The notes under the pieces are model-generated. The model worked only from the letters and a program-made list of their open reading frames with translations, was not told the origin of the DNA and did not search any database. This document shows positions 1-4,768 of a stretch of DNA of 64,000 bases, one piece after another (the first letter of the stretch is position 1; each line of letters begins with the position of its first letter). The DNA is from Escherichia phage LH2: sequence record OQ378934.1; one strand, given 5' to 3'. Both the position numbers and the translations under genes were made by a program.

Positions 1-465
1 GTTGATCGTATTCTCGATTCGATGGAAAAAGGCGAAAACTTTGAATTTTATTTTCCGTTCCTGGAAAATCTGTTGGAAAACCCGAGCCAAAAAGCGGTAT
101 CTCGACTCTTTGATTTCTTGGTAGCAAACGATATTGAAATTACAGAAGACGGCTACTTCTATGCTTGGAAAGTAGTTCGCAGTAATTACTTTGACTGTCA
201 TTCAAATACTTTTGATAACAGTCCTGGTAAAGTAGTTAAAATGCCACGTACTCGTGTGAATGACGATGATACACAAACTTGTTCTCGTGGTCTGCATGTG
301 TGTTCTAAATCTTATATTCGTCACTTTGGCAGTTCAACCAGTCGAGTTGTAAAAGTTAAAGTGCATCCGCGTGATGTAGTATCAATTCCGATTGATTACA
401 ACGACGCTAAAATGCGTACCTGCCAATACGAAGTAGTTGAAGACGTTACTGAACAATTTAAATAA
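1..465 (+). CDS. rIIB: rIIB-like protein, C-terminal part (5' end lies outside window)
   Basis: Reading frame is open from nt 1 (no stop before the listed Met at 22); sits immediately upstream of denB/ndd as rIIB does in T4. Assigned by synteny only. Confidence 0.45.
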   Translation, partial: VDRILDSMEKGENFEFYFPFLENLLENPSQKAVSRLFDFLVANDIEITEDGYFYAWKVVRSNYFDCHSNTFDNSPGKVVKMPRTRVNDDDTQTCSRGLHVCSKSYIRHFGSSTSRVVKVKVHPRDVVSIPIDYNDAKMRTCQYEVVEDVTEQFK

Positions 466-492
466 GGGCTTGGCCCTTAAATAAGGAAAATT

Positions 493-687
493 ATGTTAGG
501 TTATCAAGCACGAGTAAAAGAAGAATACGAACAATTAATGCTCAAAATTAATGCATTGAGCAAATTTTTAGAAAGTGAAAAGTTTTCAACGGTTAATGCA
601 GTTGAGCAAGAATTACTGCTTTCGCAGTTTATCTCAATGAAATCTTATGCAGATTGTTTAGAGAAAAGAATTGCACAATTCAAATAA
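493..687 (+). CDS. hypothetical protein (64 aa)
   Basis: ORF with ATG start in compact early-gene array; followed by hairpin plus T-run at 691-714. Confidence 0.4.
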   Translation: MLGYQARVKEEYEQLMLKINALSKFLESEKFSTVNAVEQELLLSQFISMKSYADCLEKRIAQFK

Positions 688-773
688 AATAAAGGGCTTC
701 GGCCCTTTTGTTTTAAGGGAAACTATGATTTATTATACGAACATCAGTGATTCCGACGTAAAAGGAAAGTTTA

Positions 774-1331
774 ATGCAGAAAACGAATCCGGGTTTACAG
801 AGACTATTTCAGATTCCGACATTTACCCTATCGAACAGTGACTTGACTAGTGAAATGAAGGCTAAAATTGCTGATACAGCAAGATACTCTTTAAAACAAA
901 ATCCAAATCAGGATAAAGCAGAAGTTATTGAAAGATGCCGTATCGCTGTGTATGCAGAGTTTTTTGTAGCAGATTGGCTGAGCGGGTATGTTAATAAAGG
1001 TCAAGAGGATGTTAATGACCCGTATACATATGCGTGGGATGTACTGGCGCATCCAAAATACTGCGGGCTTCGTGTAGAAGTCAAAACACATCAAACTGAC
1101 TCACGTTGGATTTCGGTAACAACCGGATGCAGCGGAGAATATCCATACGGTTCTGGAATAAATCTAGGGCCCATTCTGAATCATCAGGTCGCTGACTGTA
1201 TAATTATATTCAACACTAAAGAAATTCATCCAGGTGTCATCCAGTACACTCCGAAGTTCATCGGTGATAGAGAAGACCTTCGTAAGGTTGTAAGAAAAAG
1301 CAACTACAACGGATGGTATCTTTCCATTTAA
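774..1331 (+). CDS. denB: endonuclease IV (DenB)-like protein
   Basis: 185-aa ORF, same length as T4 DenB, at the syntenic position between rIIB and ndd. Confidence 0.55.
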   Translation: MQKTNPGLQRLFQIPTFTLSNSDLTSEMKAKIADTARYSLKQNPNQDKAEVIERCRIAVYAEFFVADWLSGYVNKGQEDVNDPYTYAWDVLAHPKYCGLRVEVKTHQTDSRWISVTTGCSGEYPYGSGINLGPILNHQVADCIIIFNTKEIHPGVIQYTPKFIGDREDLRKVVRKSNYNGWYLSI

Positions 1332-1385
1332 AAATTTTCACAAAACAGTTTACATACCACAAGGACTGTGGTACTATACAACTAT
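1323..1385 (+). promoter_or_regulatory. T4-type early promoter (A/T-rich UP element, GTTTAC -35 at 1348-1353, TGnTACTAT extended -10 near 1369-1377)
   Basis: Sequence aaaaattttcacaaaacaGTTTACa...tgtggTACTATacaactatcaac matches the T4 early promoter consensus; the near-identical motif recurs at 4946-5006 and 22340-22400. Confidence 0.7.
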
Positions 1386-1411
1386 CAACTGATACGGATT
1401 TGGAGAATAAA

Positions 1412-1618
1412 ATGTTTACTACAGCTGAACTAAAACGAGCAAAAGCTAAGAAAGGGCAAGGAAAATATAAAGCTGAATTAGTTAAAGAACTTCAGTTTGC
1501 TGAGGCTGAATTGAATTCAATGATTATTCAAAATGCTCCAGAAACTGAAATTGCTCTTAAACGTATTGCGAATAAGTGTCTTCGTGATGCAATCGTCGAT
1601 CTTTTAGCGGATTATTGA
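1412..1618 (+). CDS. hypothetical small protein (68 aa)
   Basis: Internal ATG at 1412 preceded by ggag RBS and lying downstream of the early promoter; the upstream part of the listed ORF (from 1313) overlaps denB and the promoter. Confidence 0.4.
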   Translation: MFTTAELKRAKAKKGQGKYKAELVKELQFAEAELNSMIIQNAPETEIALKRIANKCLRDAIVDLLADY

Positions 1619-1811
1619 GTAAAATGAAAATCGTTGAGATTGAACTATGAGTTCATTATGGTGGTGTTTCGTTTGGTTAATTAGTATTCCATTAATTTGT
1701 TTAACATTTACTTTTGTGATGAGGTTATTATGAAAATTTTTAATTCTGTACTTATTGCTTGTGCGTGGTGGGTTGCGCAAGTTTCGGCAGTAGTGATTGG
1801 TATTCACATTT

Positions 1812-1870
1812 ATTACGAATATTTTTAAAAAAGTTGTTTACAAGACTGTTCCTCTGTGGTATTATTACCC
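1812..1870 (+). promoter_or_regulatory. T4-type early promoter (GTTTAC 1836-1841, TATTAT -10 at 1860-1865)
   Basis: aagttGTTTACaagactgttcctctgtggTATTATtaccctatcaactacggagg; same architecture as the other early promoters in the window. Confidence 0.6.
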
Positions 1871-1893
1871 TATCAACTACGGAGGAACAGAAA

Positions 1894-2007
1894 ATGAAAA
1901 AGATTGTTAAAGCTATATGGAATGTAGTTATAATACTAATAGTTTTGAGTATATTCCCAATCGTTTTAATGATTGATGTATTAAACGCTTACTTTGGATT
2001 TATGTGA
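1894..2007 (+). CDS. small hydrophobic membrane peptide (37 aa)
   Basis: ATG at 1894 after ggagg RBS; product MKKIVKAIWNVVIILIVLSIFPIVLMIDVLNAYFGFM is a single predicted transmembrane helix. Confidence 0.4.
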   Translation: MKKIVKAIWNVVIILIVLSIFPIVLMIDVLNAYFGFM

Positions 2008-2014
2008 GGAAAAT

Positions 2015-2212
2015 ATGAAGCGTAAACGCAGTGCTTTTACATTTATGGAATGGTTTTTCGATAATATTTTTCCGGCTTTATTCATTTTCATGCTGATTTT
2101 CGCCTTGGGGTCAGTTGTGGTTGGAATCTATTTGATGGCGGTTGTCGGAATGGATATTCACCAAAATGGTTTAAAATCTGTGGTTGAAACAATTTGGAAT
2201 GGTGTAAAATGA
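2015..2212 (+). CDS. small membrane protein (65 aa)
   Basis: ATG at 2015 with ggaaaa RBS; long hydrophobic stretch FPALFIFMLIFALGSVVVGIYLMAVVGM. Confidence 0.4.
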   Translation: MKRKRSAFTFMEWFFDNIFPALFIFMLIFALGSVVVGIYLMAVVGMDIHQNGLKSVVETIWNGVK

Positions 2213-2327
2213 TGAATTTGCTGAGTGGTTGGTTTTATATTCTCATGTTTTACATTGGTGCAAATTTCCCATATTGGATGGGATGGTCAACAACTGCATT
2301 TGGATTTTATACTCCCTGAGGTGAATT

Positions 2328-2543
2328 ATGAAAATTTTTAAAGATGTAAAGGTCGGTGAAATTTTTTGCTTAGATAATGGTGATCAGTTAATTCGTATTT
2401 CACCTCTTAAGAGCACTAGCGAGAAAATGACAGTTAACGCTACTTTAGCAAATAACAGTAATGAACGTTTCTGTATTGAAAATGATACTGAAACTTATAC
2501 TGTAGAAGAATTCTGGGAATTAAGTGTCGACTGCGACGATTAA
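2328..2543 (+). CDS. hypothetical protein (71 aa)
   Basis: ORF with gaggtg RBS in the ndd-proximal small-gene array. Confidence 0.45.
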   Translation: MKIFKDVKVGEIFCLDNGDQLIRISPLKSTSEKMTVNATLANNSNERFCIENDTETYTVEEFWELSVDCDD

Positions 2544-2602
2544 TTTATCGGCCGTATGTATTCATGCGGCCTTGGAGTAGAAAATAATTAGAGGAAATTA
2601 AC

Positions 2603-3058
2603 ATGAAATATATGACTGTTACTGATTTGAATAATGCAGGTGCAACTGTTATTGGTACAATCAAGGGCGGTGAATGGGTTTTTGGAACTCCGCATAAAGA
2701 CATTTTGTCTAACCCTGGATTTTACTTTTTAGTGAGTAAATTTGGTGGTCCATTTGATAGTCCGTGTGTATCTGCACGATTTTATGTAGGTAATCAGCGT
2801 TCTAAGCAAGGATTCAGTGCAGTTCTAAGTCATATTCGTCAACGTCGATCTCAGCTTGCGCGTACTATTGCAAATAACAATGTTCCATACACGGTATTTT
2901 ATCTACCTGCTTCTAAGATGAAACCTCTGACGACGGGATTTGGAAAGGGTCAGTTAGCTTTAGCATTTACTCGTAATCATCATTCTGAGTATCAAACACT
3001 TGAAGAAATGAACCGTATGTTGGCTGATAATTTTAAATTTGTTTTGCAGGCATATTAA
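2603..3058 (+). CDS. ndd: nucleoid disruption protein Ndd
   Basis: 151-aa ORF (T4 Ndd is 151 aa) directly upstream of stp/ac/52; gagg RBS; stop overlaps the stp start (TAATG). Confidence 0.75.
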
Positions 3059-3138
3059 TGAGCAATTTCCATAACGAACACGTGATGCAGTTCTATCGTA
3101 ACAATCTTAAAACTAAAGGCGTCTTCGGACGCCAGTGA
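3058..3138 (+). CDS. stp: Stp peptide (26 aa), activator of host PrrC anticodon nuclease
   Basis: Unlisted small ORF translating to [26 protein letters not shown], which I recognise as T4 Stp; syntenic with ac and gene 52. Confidence 0.8.
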
Positions 3139-3145
3139 GGAAAAT

Positions 3146-3295
3146 ATGAATATCGCAAAATTATTAGGAGTTATTTCATTTATTTGTTGGATAGTAGCAT
3201 GTGTTTTAACTATCTGTATTGATGTCAGCAGCGTGTTTTCGCAAGCTTTAGCTCAAGGGTATGTGTGCATGTTTAACATTTGCGTTGTTATCTAA
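3146..3295 (+). CDS. ac: acridine-resistance membrane peptide Ac-like (49 aa)
   Basis: Unlisted small ORF MNIAKLLGVISFICWIVACVLTICIDVSSVFSQALAQGYVCMFNICVVI, hydrophobic, positioned between stp and 52 as ac is in T4. Confidence 0.6.
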   Translation: MNIAKLLGVISFICWIVACVLTICIDVSSVFSQALAQGYVCMFNICVVI

Positions 3296-3435
3296 TGATT
3301 AAGAAAATCTTGGGCTACTCAGTAGCCCTTGCTGCTTTACTGGTAGCACTATATTATGGAGTAATGTTCGGATTAATTCAAGTCGTGCTTTTCATTTCTG
3401 ATGTTATTATGGCACTACATTCACTAGTATGGTAA
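3295..3435 (+). CDS. small hydrophobic membrane peptide (46 aa)
   Basis: Unlisted ORF MIKKILGYSVALAALLVALYYGVMFGLIQVVLFISDVIMALHSLVW, start overlapping the ac stop (TAATG). Confidence 0.4.
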   Translation: MIKKILGYSVALAALLVALYYGVMFGLIQVVLFISDVIMALHSLVW

Positions 3436-3439
3436 ATTT

Positions 3440-4768
3440 ATGCAACTGAATAATCGCGATTTAAAAAGTATCATTGATAATGAAGCATTGGCTTATGCTA
3501 TGTACACGGTTGAAAATCGTGCTATTCCAAATATGATTGATGGATTTAAGCCAGTTCAACGATTTGTTATCGCTCGAGCTCTTGATTTGGCACGAGGAAA
3601 TAAAGATAAGTTTCACAAACTCGCTTCTATTGCAGGTGGTGTAGCTGACCTTGGATATCATCATGGTGAAAACTCTGCGCAAGACGCGGGGGCTTTGATG
3701 GCTAATACTTGGAATAATAACTTTCCTTTGTTAGATGGTCAAGGAAACTTTGGTTCTCGTACCGTTCAAAAAGCAGCAGCAAGTCGTTATATTTTTGCTC
3801 GTGTAAGTAAAAATTTCTATAGTGTATATAAAGATACTGAATATGCTCCGGTACATCAAGATAAAGAACACATTCCGCCTGCTTTCTATTTGCCTATTAT
3901 TCCTACTGTTCTTCTTAATGGTGTTTCCGGTATTGCAACTGGTTATGCAACTTATATTCTTCCTCATAGTGTTTCTTCTGTCAAGAAAGCTGTACTACAA
4001 GCTCTTCAAGGAAAGAAAGTAACTAAACCGAAGGTAGAATTCCCAGAATTTCGTGGTGAAGTCGTTGAGATTGACGGGCAATATGAAATTCGTGGAACAT
4101 ATAAGTTTACTTCACGAACTCAAATGAATATCACTGAAATTCCGTATAAGTATGATCGTGAAACTTATGTGAGTAAAATCTTAGACCCGCTTGAAGATAA
4201 GGGCTTCATTACATGGGATGATGCTTGTGGTGAGCATGGTTTTGGCTTTAAAGTTAAATTCCGTAAAGAATATTCTTTGAGTGATAACGAAGAAGAACGC
4301 CATGCAAAAATCATGAAAGACTTCGGGTTGATTGAGCGTCGTTCCCAAAATATTACCGTTATTAATGAGAAAGGCAAGCTGCAAGTTTACGATAACGTAG
4401 TTGATTTAATCAAAGACTTCGTTGAAGTTCGTAAAACTTATGTCCAAAAACGAATTGATAACAAAATTAAAGAAACTGAATCAGCATTTCGTTTAGCCTT
4501 TGCCAAGGCGCATTTCATTAAGAAAGTAATTTCAGGTGAAATTGTTGTGCAGGGTAAAACTCGTAAAGAACTGACCGAAGAACTTTCTAAAATTGAGATG
4601 TATTCTTCTTATGTTGATAAACTAGTCGGAATGAATATTTTTCATATGACTTCTGATGAAGCAAAGAAACTTGCTGAAGAAGCTAAAGCTAAAAAAGAAG
4701 AAAACGAATATTGGAAAACTACTGATGTAGTTACAGAATACACCAAAGATTTAGAGGAAATCAAATGA
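3440..4768 (+). CDS. 52: DNA topoisomerase II medium subunit gp52
   Basis: 442-aa ORF (T4 gp52 is 442 aa) with the GyrA/ParC-like N-terminal segment (…AIPNMIDGFKPVQRFVIARAL…). Confidence 0.95.
   Translation: MQLNNRDLKSIIDNEALAYAMYTVENRAIPNMIDGFKPVQRFVIARALDLARGNKDKFHKLASIAGGVADLGYHHGENSAQDAGALMANTWNNNFPLLDGQGNFGSRTVQKAAASRYIFARVSKNFYSVYKDTEYAPVHQDKEHIPPAFYLPIIPTVLLNGVSGIATGYATYILPHSVSSVKKAVLQALQGKKVTKPKVEFPEFRGEVVEIDGQYEIRGTYKFTSRTQMNITEIPYKYDRETYVSKILDPLEDKGFITWDDACGEHGFGFKVKFRKEYSLSDNEEERHAKIMKDFGLIERRSQNITVINEKGKLQVYDNVVDLIKDFVEVRKTYVQKRIDNKIKETESAFRLAFAKAHFIKKVISGEIVVQGKTRKELTEELSKIEMYSSYVDKLVGMNIFHMTSDEAKKLAEEAKAKKEENEYWKTTDVVTEYTKDLEEIK

Follow-up and report, generated by a model that had tools for sequence, protein, structure and literature searches.

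Which role, if any, is played by the very short reading frames packed between denB (774-1331) and ndd (2603-3058) in Escherichia phage LH2 (OQ378934.1)? Five tandem open reading frames (ORFs) of 28, 32, 37, 65 and 36 aa occupy positions 1647-2319 (+) of the window, i.e. the whole 64,000-nt stretch of DNA that was analysed. We assessed whether these ORFs are genuine genes, how they are likely to be expressed and what their products may do in the host.

Identity of the denB-ndd array

On sequence evidence, the window was assigned to Tequatrovirus (T4-like phages) and its five ORFs to orthologues of T4 ndd.6 (1647-1733), ndd.5 (1730-1828), ndd.4 (1894-2007), ndd.3/ndd.2a (2015-2212) and ndd.2 (2209-2319), all on the + strand. 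Megablast of the window returned matches in 508 phage records, the names ndd.6 to ndd.2 being those used in the annotation of PP01 and T4, and a PHROG scan gave a full-length match for each of the five ORFs. The last four correspond to the small ORFs of 32-65 aa that a first-pass annotation, made from the sequence alone, had placed between denB and ndd; the two peptides it quoted were located in the 37-aa ndd.4 (MKKIVKAIWN...) and inside the 65-aa ORF (FPALFIFML...). Its count of four or five genes from position 1730 onwards was right for four of them, the fifth (ndd.6) starting just outside that boundary.

In T4 (NC_000866, T4p275-T4p270; UniProt P39248, P39247, P39249, P39245 and P39244), the genes have the same position from denB to ndd, the same order and the same strand, they are preceded by the same two early promoters, and their products share 91-100 % amino acid identity with those of the window. 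The window is nevertheless not T4 itself: DNA identity is about 95 %, and the window carries a 68-aa ORF (1412-1618) that T4 lacks.

The genes had been described as usually unannotated, which proved incorrect: the records of T4 and many relatives list them, and ndd.6-ndd.2 are already represented by UniProt entries, PHROG families and two Pfam families (DUF7248/PF23906 and PF26889). As a genome feature the array is ordinary, being a set of catalogued T4 genes found again from raw sequence. Several automated annotations leave out ndd.6, ndd.5 or ndd.2. Since PHROGs 8851, 5011, 3098, 2401 and 4135, as well as DUF7248 and PF26889, are all families of unknown function, membership is silent on mechanism. 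The surrounding genes (rIIB, denB, ndd, stp and ac) belong to a part of T-even genomes devoted to host interaction.

Coding status and conservation

Among 18 Tequatrovirus sequences, pN/pS was 0.08-0.18 in the annotated frames (0.08 for ndd.6, 0.18 for ndd.5, 0.11 for the 65-aa gene and 0.13 for ndd.2) against about 0.7-3.4 in shifted frames, and third positions accounted for 21 of the 31 variable sites of the 65-aa gene. Close relatives hold too few substitutions in ndd.4 for this test. Homologues were found in T4-like phages of Klebsiella, Enterobacter, Serratia, Edwardsiella, Pectobacterium and Erwinia, with conserved ORF lengths and 25-58 % identity in loci whose Ndd proteins are 46-66 % identical, although the presence or absence of individual genes is mosaic between genera. 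They comprised 148 DUF7248 proteins (59-88 aa) and 44 proteins of the ndd.4 family, all from T4-like phages. A phmmer search with ndd.4 against 1.8 billion representatives returned six clusters, five of which were short peptides shared with the ndd.4-family search, the sixth being an 80-aa sequence containing ndd.4. The reading frames are therefore conserved across genera, one of the points on which the first-pass annotation had made its proposal depend, and purifying selection on the frames together with conservation in distant phages identifies them as genuine genes.

These data bear directly on the view that the array holds no functional protein genes, either because its ORFs are chance hydrophobic frames of a T-rich strand or because their translation merely regulates or stabilises the ndd mRNA. 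A hydrophobic look is expected in about 10-20 % of random small ORFs of this AT-rich genome (in the window, only about 10 % of the ATG-initiated ORFs of 28-70 aa in the six frames reach a Kyte-Doolittle value of 2.0), the T4 proteins have never been detected (PMC9697503), and synonymous change is suppressed in ndd.4, as a nucleotide-level function would predict. This view is largely refuted by the in-frame pN/pS values, with variation mainly at third positions, and by the amino acid motifs kept across genera despite diverged DNA; we consider it extremely improbable. Spurious ORFs were rejected on the same two grounds.

The near-absence of synonymous change in ndd.4 DNA among close relatives hints at an additional or alternative constraint at the nucleotide level, and these frozen sites could mark a second function. 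RNA structure is not supported as its cause: the single-sequence fold was marginal (z=-1.8), RNAalifold on 12 diverged ndd.4 homologues predicted 0 pairs and a Rfam scan of window positions 1-4000 at E<=1 gave no match, the last two results also speaking against the view that the array lacks functional protein genes.

Two gene models can be corrected. The 65-aa gene is intact in the window, whereas a 1-nt gap in the T4 reference splits it into 'ndd.3' and 'ndd.2a'; on this comparison, T4 'ndd.3' appears to be an artefact of a G missing from the reference, through either a sequencing error or a tolerated loss. The same choice between sequencing errors and tolerated loss applies to the disrupted copies found in three of the 18 sampled genomes (the T4 reference, T2 NC_054931 and phage FT). 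For ndd.4, the conserved start gives a protein of 37 aa, against 42 aa in the T4 annotation. An indel lies in the A-run that follows the ndd.5 stop; full-length ndd.5 proteins are encoded, and the gene is annotated at 99 nt in the records.

Promoters and translation signals

Two sigma-70-type early promoters were identified on the + strand. The first, P1 (1349-1377; TTTACA-17-TACTAT, 9/12 consensus positions with TG), matches the promoter feature 1017-1053 of the T4 record X75802, the offset being derived from shared flanking sequence, and serves the 68-aa ORF, ndd.6 and ndd.5. The second, P2 (1837-1865; GTTTACA-17-TGgTATTAT, 10/12 with TG), equals the X75802 promoter 1296-1332: its -35 element GTTTACA lies at 1836/1837, its extended -10 ends at 1865 and an A/T-rich stretch (1812-1836) precedes it. 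P2 heads a unit running from ndd.4 through the 65-aa gene, ndd.2 and ndd.1 to ndd. The early promoter that the first-pass annotation had proposed at 1812-1870 is thus real, and it precedes three of the four ORFs that were said to lie downstream of it, ndd.5 being situated upstream. In 23 of 33 loci, the ndd.4 homologue is preceded at a distance of 45-60 nt by a T4-type early promoter, against an expectation of 0.08 per 160 nt.

Signals for translation vary along the array. An 8-codon mini-ORF (MKIVEIEL*, 1624-1650, +), read from the sequence and also found in T4 and PP01, ends on the ndd.6 start codon (ATGA); ndd.6 homologues have a Shine-Dalgarno (SD) match of at least 4 nt in only 1 of 15 loci, and the mini-ORF may possibly couple translation to this gene, which lacks a good SD. 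The ndd.5 start overlaps the ndd.6 stop (ATGA) and is preceded by the SD GAGG. For ndd.4 the SD is GGAGG, with a match of at least 4 nt in 29 of 33 loci, and the ndd.2 start overlaps the stop of the 65-aa gene (ATGATGA).

The P2 unit also includes ndd.1 (2328-2543, +; phrog_2183, E=3e-38; pN/pS 0.07), whose 71-aa product is soluble and acidic and is not a membrane peptide. Between ndd.1 and ndd, a 9-bp RNA stem-loop without U-tract (2550-2571, +) corresponds to the stem_loop feature of X75802; its MFE is -17 kcal/mol (z=-3.1), a value equalled by 0 of 200 shuffles.

Predicted membrane character of the products

The best 19-residue Kyte-Doolittle means were 2.31 for ndd.6, 2.18 for ndd.5, 3.06 for ndd.4, 2.71 for the 65-aa protein and 1.17 for ndd.2, which indicates four clear transmembrane (TM) helices and a marginal one. 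The earlier claim that every ORF encodes a single TM helix accordingly applies to the first four, ndd.2 being weakly hydrophobic. The products are most plausibly membrane-inserted.

The ndd.6 product (phrog_8851, E=3e-17, full length), a single hydrophobic helix, has conserved Cys and Pro residues (SxxWC.IW...IP.IC) and homologues in 16 loci. The ndd.5 product (phrog_5011, E=9e-26), with one TM helix, is present in Tequatrovirus-level loci only. The ndd.4 product (phrog_3098, E=3.9e-21 over residues 1-37 of 37), whose close homologues carry the PF26889 tag in the protein database, combines a basic N-terminus (MKKIVK), a TM helix, an invariant Asp28 at its distal end and an aromatic tail; members of this family are 35-42 aa long and occupy the same place between denB and ndd in 34 of 39 loci, with an early promoter in front of the gene in 23 of 33. 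Their K+R content is 2.7 in the N-flank against 0.4 in the C-flank, a positive-inside bias. Finally, the ndd.2 product (phrog_4135, E=2e-24; 17 loci) is uncharged, has 12 aromatic residues out of 36 and carries a conserved G.N.PYW(L/M)G motif.

The 65-aa product (DUF7248) matched Pfam PF23906 at 73.4 bits (cutoff 27), residues 5-63 aligning with profile positions 3-57 of 58, as well as phrog_2401. It consists of a basic N-terminus (MKRKRS), a long TM helix, an invariant Gly52 hinge and a conserved C-terminal helix (GLKSVVETIWNG) with the family motif GLKSVV(E/D)xIWNG following the single TM helix. In 26 DUF7248 sequences, G52, K54 and G63 are invariant and L53, S55 and W61 are conserved at >=90 %. 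Both ndd.4 and the DUF7248 protein are predicted to be oriented N-in/C-out.

The PSORT-style labels 'outer membrane' and 'periplasmic' attached to these proteins are almost certainly wrong. One alpha-helical hydrophobic stretch in 28-36 aa makes a barrel impossible; the 65-aa protein was modelled by AF2 as one continuous helix (residues 10-51), with a second helix at 53-62; and a lipobox-like LIAC occurs only in ndd.5 (residues 8-11), after a stretch of just 7 residues. The 'periplasmic' label of the T4 annotators would fit a different reading of the DUF7248 protein, namely a secretion precursor whose C-terminal ~19 residues (MDIHQNGLKSVVETIWNGVK) are released to the periplasm as an active peptide. 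Its basic N-terminus and hydrophobic stretch could serve as a signal sequence, the strongest DUF7248 conservation is seen only in the last 15-20 residues, and the -3/-1 small-residue rule is satisfied at the junction ...AVVG|MD of the window and, in some homologues, at ...VDA|I and ...VQA|V. However, this motif is not family-wide (e.g. ...VHV|I, ...FDM|I), the hydrophobic stretch of ~28-30 residues far exceeds a typical cleavable h-region and the AF2 helix continues through the junction, so that we regard such processing as improbable. Along with 'outer membrane protein' and 'periplasmic protein', the names 'naphthalene 1,2-dioxygenase' and 'dNMP kinase' are mis-annotations that have spread and can now be corrected.

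Expression and dispensability in T4

In T4, the RNA of ndd.2-ndd.6 is classed as 'early', and the accompanying proteome data give no protein class for these genes, ndd.1 being detected as an early protein (PMC9697503, suppl. 4). Tiny hydrophobic peptides are poor targets for mass spectrometry. CRISPRi-ART scored ndd.1-ndd.6 as 'Not Fit', i.e. knock-down had no phenotype (PMC11879866, suppl. 15). An engineered T4 devoid of ndd.6-ndd.3 is viable, and the T4 deletion sa-delta-9, which removes 52.1 to denB, still gives a burst of about 50 % (PMC6071114). The latter study (Kutter 2018) was the sole literature match for ndd.1-ndd.6, where they are given as 'products unknown'. A literature search under the name 'ndd.2a' retrieved no paper, and ndd.6-ndd.2 are not covered by the toxic-ORF screen, the defence-trigger library papers or the Ojima preprint.

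Possible functions of the micro-proteins

The explanation that we favour, and hold to be probable on balance, is that the array encodes early accessory micro-proteins which insert into the inner membrane as single helices, bind host envelope components and confer a conditional benefit. Transcription of the five tandem genes would start from the two early promoters within minutes of infection, and translation would rely on SD sites and stop/start overlaps. Each 28-65-aa product would insert into the inner membrane of the host through one helix, ndd.4 and the DUF7248 protein adopting the N-in/C-out orientation. There, the peptides would tune host inner-membrane proteins and/or phospholipid metabolism in the manner of small-protein regulators, with an advantage that may depend on particular hosts or conditions and be invisible on laboratory strains.

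The invariant Asp of ndd.4 at the membrane edge and the Gly-hinged GLKSVVExIWNG helix of DUF7248 on the predicted periplasmic side point to specific envelope binding rather than generic membrane damage. In size (30-65 aa), in the predicted single N-in/C-out helix and in having a few invariant polar residues, ndd.x products resemble AcrZ (acting on AcrB), MgrB (PhoQ) and MgtS (MgtA); by analogy, the polar invariant residues of ndd.x could mediate helix-helix or interfacial binding. These bacterial regulators have no homology to the phage-encoded ndd.x, and the likeness is one of mechanism only. Hok, TisB, Ibs and ShoB are alike in length and hydrophobicity, especially to ndd.6, but type I toxin and holin-like peptides gave no profile match to ndd.x. 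Generic pore formation is disfavoured because the ndd.x motifs are specific and conserved, and early membrane depolarisation would be counter-productive for the phage. Searches against Pfam, NCBIfam, PADLOC and PDB profiles returned DUFs or chance TM matches only and no characterised homologue.

A specific sub-case of the favoured explanation is that at least one peptide determines the phospholipid remodelling seen in T4 infection by targeting a lipid-synthesis enzyme of the inner membrane or the control of that enzyme. During T4 infection, phosphatidylglycerol (PG) synthesis is stimulated and phosphatidylethanolamine synthesis declines (PMC6071114). The sa-delta-9 deletion, in which 52.1, ac, stp, ndd, ndd.1-ndd.6 and denB are missing, virtually abolishes phospholipid stimulation (Kutter et al. 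2018, PMC6071114); no other phenotype has been mapped to this interval. [quoted passage not shown] No effect on lipids is known for any characterised gene of the interval, and several of the encoded proteins were predicted to be membrane proteins (PMC6071114); by our predictions, seven of the genes deleted in sa-delta-9 encode single-helix membrane peptides. Yet the effect was mapped to about 3.4 kb with at least 13 genes, among which ac, 52.1, ndd and denB are equally possible, and PG stimulation is likewise absent from strains without dCTPase, EndoIV and Alc, an observation that could point to denB or DNA metabolism (PMC6071114). We consider this sub-case rather unlikely. The same holds for its narrower form, in which one of the peptides, with ndd.4 (and its invariant Asp) and DUF7248 (and its GLKSVVExIWNG helix) as the best candidates, would be the phospholipid-reprogramming factor and would bind a protein of lipid synthesis or envelope stress in the inner membrane. 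Single-gene experiments are made easier by the motifs, the predicted topologies and the revised gene models, with ndd.3/2a as one gene of 65 aa and ndd.4 as a protein of 37 aa.

Alternatively, the peptides could act in counter-defence or host range by neutralising membrane-anchored abortive-infection or exclusion systems, or by avoiding their triggering, as rIIA/rIIB do versus RexAB. The host-conflict genes rIIB, denB, ndd and stp adjoin the array, genes have been gained and lost between genera in a mosaic pattern, and those of the array are expressed early in T4 and dispensable, without fitness effect on laboratory E. coli. On the other hand, the PADLOC and NCBIfam profiles revealed no similarity to known anti-defence proteins (a 13.8-bit match of ndd.4 to the KwaA TM-helix, E=0.008, was the only one in PADLOC, NCBIfam giving nothing), no experimental link was found, and the retention of ndd.4 and DUF7248 over many genera under strong purifying selection fits a conserved host target more than an arms race. 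A role of this kind seems to us rather unlikely.

Superinfection exclusion, whereby the peptides would keep secondary phages from penetrating the cell wall or getting their DNA into the cell, was also proposed at first. The T4 exclusion proteins Imm and Sp are small, early and envelope-located, and the early expression and predicted envelope location of ndd.x are consistent with such an activity. However, imm and sp already account genetically for T4 exclusion and lie in a different genomic region, ndd.x proteins show no similarity to Imm or Sp (Pfam at E<=0.1, PHROG at E<=0.01), and the searchable literature gave no report of altered exclusion in deletions of the sa-delta-9 type; we see very little likelihood in this proposal. 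What is supported of the initial interpretation is that the array consists of real, conserved early genes for tiny hydrophobic peptides in a host-interaction region.

Neighbouring single-helix genes

Downstream of ndd and stp, ac (49 aa) and 52.1 (46 aa, DUF7396), both named in the PP01/T4 annotation, lie at 3146-3435 (+) and encode predicted single-helix micro-proteins (best 19-residue means 2.74 and 2.35; phrog_2501, phrog_3595 and PF24129). The whole interval from denB to gene 52 is rich in genes of this type. T4 Ac and gp52.1 share with ndd.x the early region and the architecture (46-51 aa, one TM helix), but belong to different PHROGs with no detectable sequence relationship, and Ac has a genetic phenotype (acridine sensitivity) whereas the ndd.x genes do not. 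The stop-in-SD junction TGAGGAAAATATG is identical before ac and before the 65-aa gene.

ORF content and annotation of the denB-ndd interval

Five ORFs follow one another on the + strand at 1647-2319, flanked by a 185-aa ORF (774-1331) and a 151-aa ORF (2603-3058): ndd.6 (1647-1733, 28 aa, MSSLWWCFVWLISIPLICLTFTFVMRLL), ndd.5 (1730-1828, 32 aa, MKIFNSVLIACAWWVAQVSAVVIGIHIYYEYF), ndd.4 (1894-2007, 37 aa, MKKIVKAIWNVVIILIVLSIFPIVLMIDVLNAYFGFM), a 65-aa gene (2015-2212, MKRKRSAFTFMEWFFDNIFPALFIFMLIFALGSVVVGIYLMAVVGMDIHQNGLKSVVETIWNGVK) and ndd.2 (2209-2319, 36 aa, MMNLLSGWFYILMFYIGANFPYWMGWSTTAFGFYTP). The first-pass annotation had reported a cluster of tiny ORFs between denB and ndd; this observation is confirmed, both of the peptides it quoted being encoded in the third and fourth ORFs, and its interpretation is partly supported.

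The region 1300-2600 matched 508 phage records, nearly all Tequatrovirus, with vB_EcoM_SYGD1 as top match (98.6 %); T4 was about 95 % identical across 85 % of the query. Gene order is exactly that of PP01 and T4 (rIIB, denB.1, denB, ndd.6, ndd.5, ndd.4, ndd.2a, ndd.2, ndd.1, ndd, stp, ac, 52.1, 52), plus one extra ORF (68 aa, 1412-1618). All five small ORFs matched PHROG families end to end (E 3e-17 to 6e-30), the 65-aa ORF matched Pfam DUF7248 (73 bits), the ndd.4 family is tagged PF26889 in a large protein database and the T4 orthologues carry UniProt accessions (T4 omics supplement, PMC9697503). Given these entries and the T4 and PP01 gene names, the feature is already catalogued: the block is T4 ndd.6-ndd.2, known and unremarkable in the early region of a T-even phage. 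That such genes are usually unannotated is thus wrong for T4 and applies to T6, SYGD1, FT, ACG-C40 and NBG2, where ndd.6, ndd.5 and/or ndd.2 were left out. The residual interest lies in the function of the block and in by-products of its analysis, i.e. gene models, a nucleotide-level valley in ndd.4 and mis-annotations. The latter have propagated on these tiny genes (T6, slur03, database matches H6, H55 and H89, protein P0126) and include 'naphthalene 1,2-dioxygenase', for which the symbol ndd is apparently the source, 'dNMP kinase', 'chaperone for long tail fiber formation' and 'ABC-type phosphate transport system permease'.

Gene models were further revised. At codon 2 of the 65-aa gene (2015-2023), the T4 reference NC_000866.4 lacks one G (ATGAA-CGT versus ATGAAGCGT), which yields 'ndd.3' (26 aa, out of frame) and 'ndd.2a' (40 aa, from an internal Met); the affected annotations lie at 549-629 and 433-555 of our extract of that record (locus L040). 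Since the ORF is intact in re-sequenced T4 (KJ477684), in the window, in PP01 and in 493 of 494 phage records, and Pfam DUF7248 models the long form, the annotated 'ndd.3' is probably an artefact. The 42-aa ndd.4 of T4 requires a T4-specific upstream ATG, where the window and PP01 have ACG; the start that is conserved, at 1894, is preceded by GGAGG. The first ATG of ndd.2 is ATA in two loci, where the second ATG is used.

Hydrophobicity of the predicted products

The highest 19-residue Kyte-Doolittle means were 2.31 (ndd.6), 2.18 (ndd.5), 3.06 (ndd.4), 2.71 (65-aa gene) and 1.17 (ndd.2). A single transmembrane helix per ORF, as initially proposed, is therefore unambiguously predicted for the first four and marginal for ndd.2, in which 12 of the 36 residues are aromatic. 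As about 10 % of the 212 ATG-ORFs of 28-70 aa that the window holds in its six frames reach at least 2.0 in this AT-rich genome, hydrophobicity by itself is weak evidence, and the case for genes depends on conservation. The inherited T4 labels 'outer membrane' and 'periplasmic' are not credible for single helices of 28-36 aa. A lipobox-like LIAC at residues 8-11 of ndd.5 (1751-1762), after the very short N-terminal MKIFNSV, probably explains the old 'outer membrane' prediction; the preceding stretch appears too short for a convincing lipoprotein signal.

Conservation and selection

For pN/pS estimation, 18 Tequatrovirus-level sequences were aligned and pairwise Nei-Gojobori counts were pooled. 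Values in the annotated frame were 0.08 (ndd.6), 0.18 (ndd.5), 0.11 (65-aa gene), 0.13 (ndd.2) and 0.07 (ndd.1), versus about 0.7-3.4 in the evaluable shifted frames of the five small ORFs and 0.48 in the promoter spacer. Third positions accounted for 21 of the 31 variable sites of the 65-aa gene; ndd.4 had only four variable sites among the 18 sequences, making the test uninformative for this gene.

In addition, 36 loci were fetched around Ndd homologues of 46-95 % identity and HMMs were iterated over their ORFs. Among the 39 loci counted, homologues were found in 34 (ndd.4), 21 (DUF7248), 17 (ndd.2) and 16 (ndd.6), those of ndd.5 being confined to close relatives. A profile search of 5.8 billion proteins retrieved 148 DUF7248 proteins (59-88 aa) and 44 of the ndd.4 family, all encoded by T4-like Enterobacterales phages; with ndd.4 as query, an exhaustive HMMER scan returned six representative clusters only. 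Both pN/pS and these homologues clearly indicate reading frames conserved in relatives. The five ORFs are very probably real, early, membrane micro-protein genes, and that they are non-coding or regulatory is extremely improbable and essentially excluded.

Disruptions were seen in single genomes, i.e. a nonsense codon replacing Ser33 in the 65-aa gene of T2 NC_054931, a 1-nt deletion in the same gene in phage FT and a frameshift close to the ndd.6 end in locus L005; they reflect either sequencing error or decay that is tolerated in dispensable genes.

Third-position diversity (pi) within Tequatrovirus was 0.003 in ndd.4 versus 0.04-0.11 in its neighbours, the valley covering 1894-2007 and reaching to about 2100. 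One of 37 third positions segregates in ndd.4, compared with 68 of the 232 outside it (P about 4e-5 in a binomial calculation that ignores phylogenetic dependence), and at least 99 % DNA identity to the window is found in 312 of 494 genomes for ndd.4 versus 17 of 479 for the equal-sized ndd.2. A hairpin within ndd.4 is only marginal (z=-1.8), lacks conservation among diverged homologues and has no match in Rfam. The valley could possibly reflect a recombinational sweep or a nucleotide-level signal that has escaped recognition.

Expression signals

Two sigma-70 early-type promoters were predicted at 1349-1377 and 1837-1865, and both are annotated in the T4 ndd record X75802. Because the second promoter comes after ndd.6 and ndd.5, the earlier placement of the ORFs downstream of an early promoter is right for ndd.4, the 65-aa gene and ndd.2 only. 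In 23 of 33 loci, a match to GTTTAC-N16-19-TAnn[AT]T lies no more than 160 nt 5' of the ndd.4 homologue (expectation 0.08 per 160 nt), in most cases about 45-60 nt before the conserved ATG, so promoter and ndd.4 form a conserved module.

Shine-Dalgarno matches of at least 4 nt precede ndd.4 in 29/33 loci, ndd.5 in 7/7, ndd.1 in 16/16 and ndd.6 in 1/15. An 8-codon mini-ORF, MKIVEIEL* (1624-1650, also in T4 and PP01), overlaps the ndd.6 start through ATGA and may provide translational coupling to this gene, which has no proper Shine-Dalgarno sequence. Stop/start overlaps also occur between ndd.6 and ndd.5 (ATGA) and between the 65-aa gene and ndd.2 (ATGATGA). A stable 9-bp stem-loop without U-tract between ndd.1 and ndd (2550-2571, z=-3.1, annotated in X75802) may act in mRNA stabilisation or processing and not as a terminator.

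In T4, ndd.2-ndd.6 are of RNA class 'early' with no protein class, whereas ndd and ndd.1 belong to the early class for RNA and protein alike (Wolfram-Schauerte et al. 2022, PMC9697503 file 4; columns as interpreted here); transcription of ndd.2-ndd.6 is thus shown, and their translation is inferred.

Predicted topology and possible roles

In the ndd.4 family, the N-terminus is basic (KKxxKxIWN) and is followed by about 20 hydrophobic residues with an invariant Asp at their distal end and by an aromatic tail (mean K+R 2.7 in the N-flank versus 0.4 in the C-flank). DUF7248 proteins also start with a basic segment (K+R 4.3), which leads into a long hydrophobic helix and then a C-terminal motif; G52, K54 and G63 of this motif are invariant, and L53, S55 and W61 almost invariant. 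AlphaFold2, run on an alignment of 26 sequences, gave helices at 10-51 (pLDDT up to 96) and 53-62, separated by a break at G52. By the positive-inside rule, both products are predicted to be N-in/C-out inner-membrane proteins, and the conserved Asp of ndd.4 and the GLKSVVExIWNG helix of DUF7248 would lie at or beyond the periplasmic face. Release of a cleaved periplasmic peptide from DUF7248 is quite improbable, the cleavage motif not being conserved. Polar features as sharply conserved as those of ndd.4 and DUF7248, in helices that vary freely elsewhere, favour specific partners over non-specific membrane damage, and we consider specific binding an evenly balanced proposition. This argument favours an action resembling that of small-protein regulators, in which the peptides would target envelope proteins or lipid synthesis of the host, the benefit being conditional. 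Taken as a whole, early membrane micro-proteins binding such targets specifically is the reading we find reasonably likely.

Our literature search found a function assigned to none of ndd.6-ndd.2, and Kutter et al. 2018 (PMC6071114) give the ndd.1-ndd.6 products as unknown. In the same study, the stimulation of phospholipid synthesis that follows infection is almost entirely lost with the sa-delta-9 deletion (52.1 to denB), which still yields about 50 % of wild type. Lipid remodelling by one or more ndd-block peptides is the most concrete lead, but the mapping resolves to 3.4 kb only, and we hold it rather unlikely. All genes from ac to denB.1 were 'Not Fit' by CRISPRi-ART (PMC11879866 suppl. 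15), and engineered T4 (MZ375356, clone T4_583L) is viable without ndd.6-ndd.3. A role in counter-defence or host range, which agrees with this dispensability, the neighbourhood and the mosaic content, has a similarly low probability. Superinfection exclusion, put forward in the first-pass annotation, found no support and is even less probable than peptide cleavage.

Cassettes and neighbouring micro-genes

The 68-aa ORF (1412-1618; phrog_4535) encodes a soluble, charged protein and is present in PP01, T2 and RB14 and absent from T4. It is inserted precisely between the leader of the 1349-1377 promoter and the mini-ORF preceding ndd.6, a site occupied by a different 87-aa ORF in other relatives; with either ORF or none depending on the phage, the denB/ndd.6 junction is a cassette-insertion hot spot. 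The 13-mer TGAGGAAAATATG has only two exact copies in the 64 kb (2005-2017 and 3136-3148), each with the upstream stop within the Shine-Dalgarno sequence of the next gene, then ATG, and each at the head of a hydrophobic micro-gene, once the 65-aa gene and once ac. In distant phages, genes of the ndd block are preceded by similar TGAGGAAA junctions; such junctions could serve as minihomology for cassette shuffling.

An apparently natural in-frame chimera, ndd.4(1-31)::65-aa protein(38-65), was found in Shigella phage Sf25 (protein P0006), and the genome-reduced T4_583L (MZ375356; protein P0007, locus L041) carries ndd.5(1-22)::65-aa protein(45-65), also in frame; the junctions are located in similar hydrophobic codon runs. 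Further single-helix micro-genes, ac and 52.1, lie between ndd and gene 52 (3146-3435), so that the whole denB-52 interval constitutes a conserved 'nursery' of membrane micro-proteins. In distant phages (loci L008-L039), two to four unassigned hydrophobic ORFs of 43-72 aa are located 3' of ndd.
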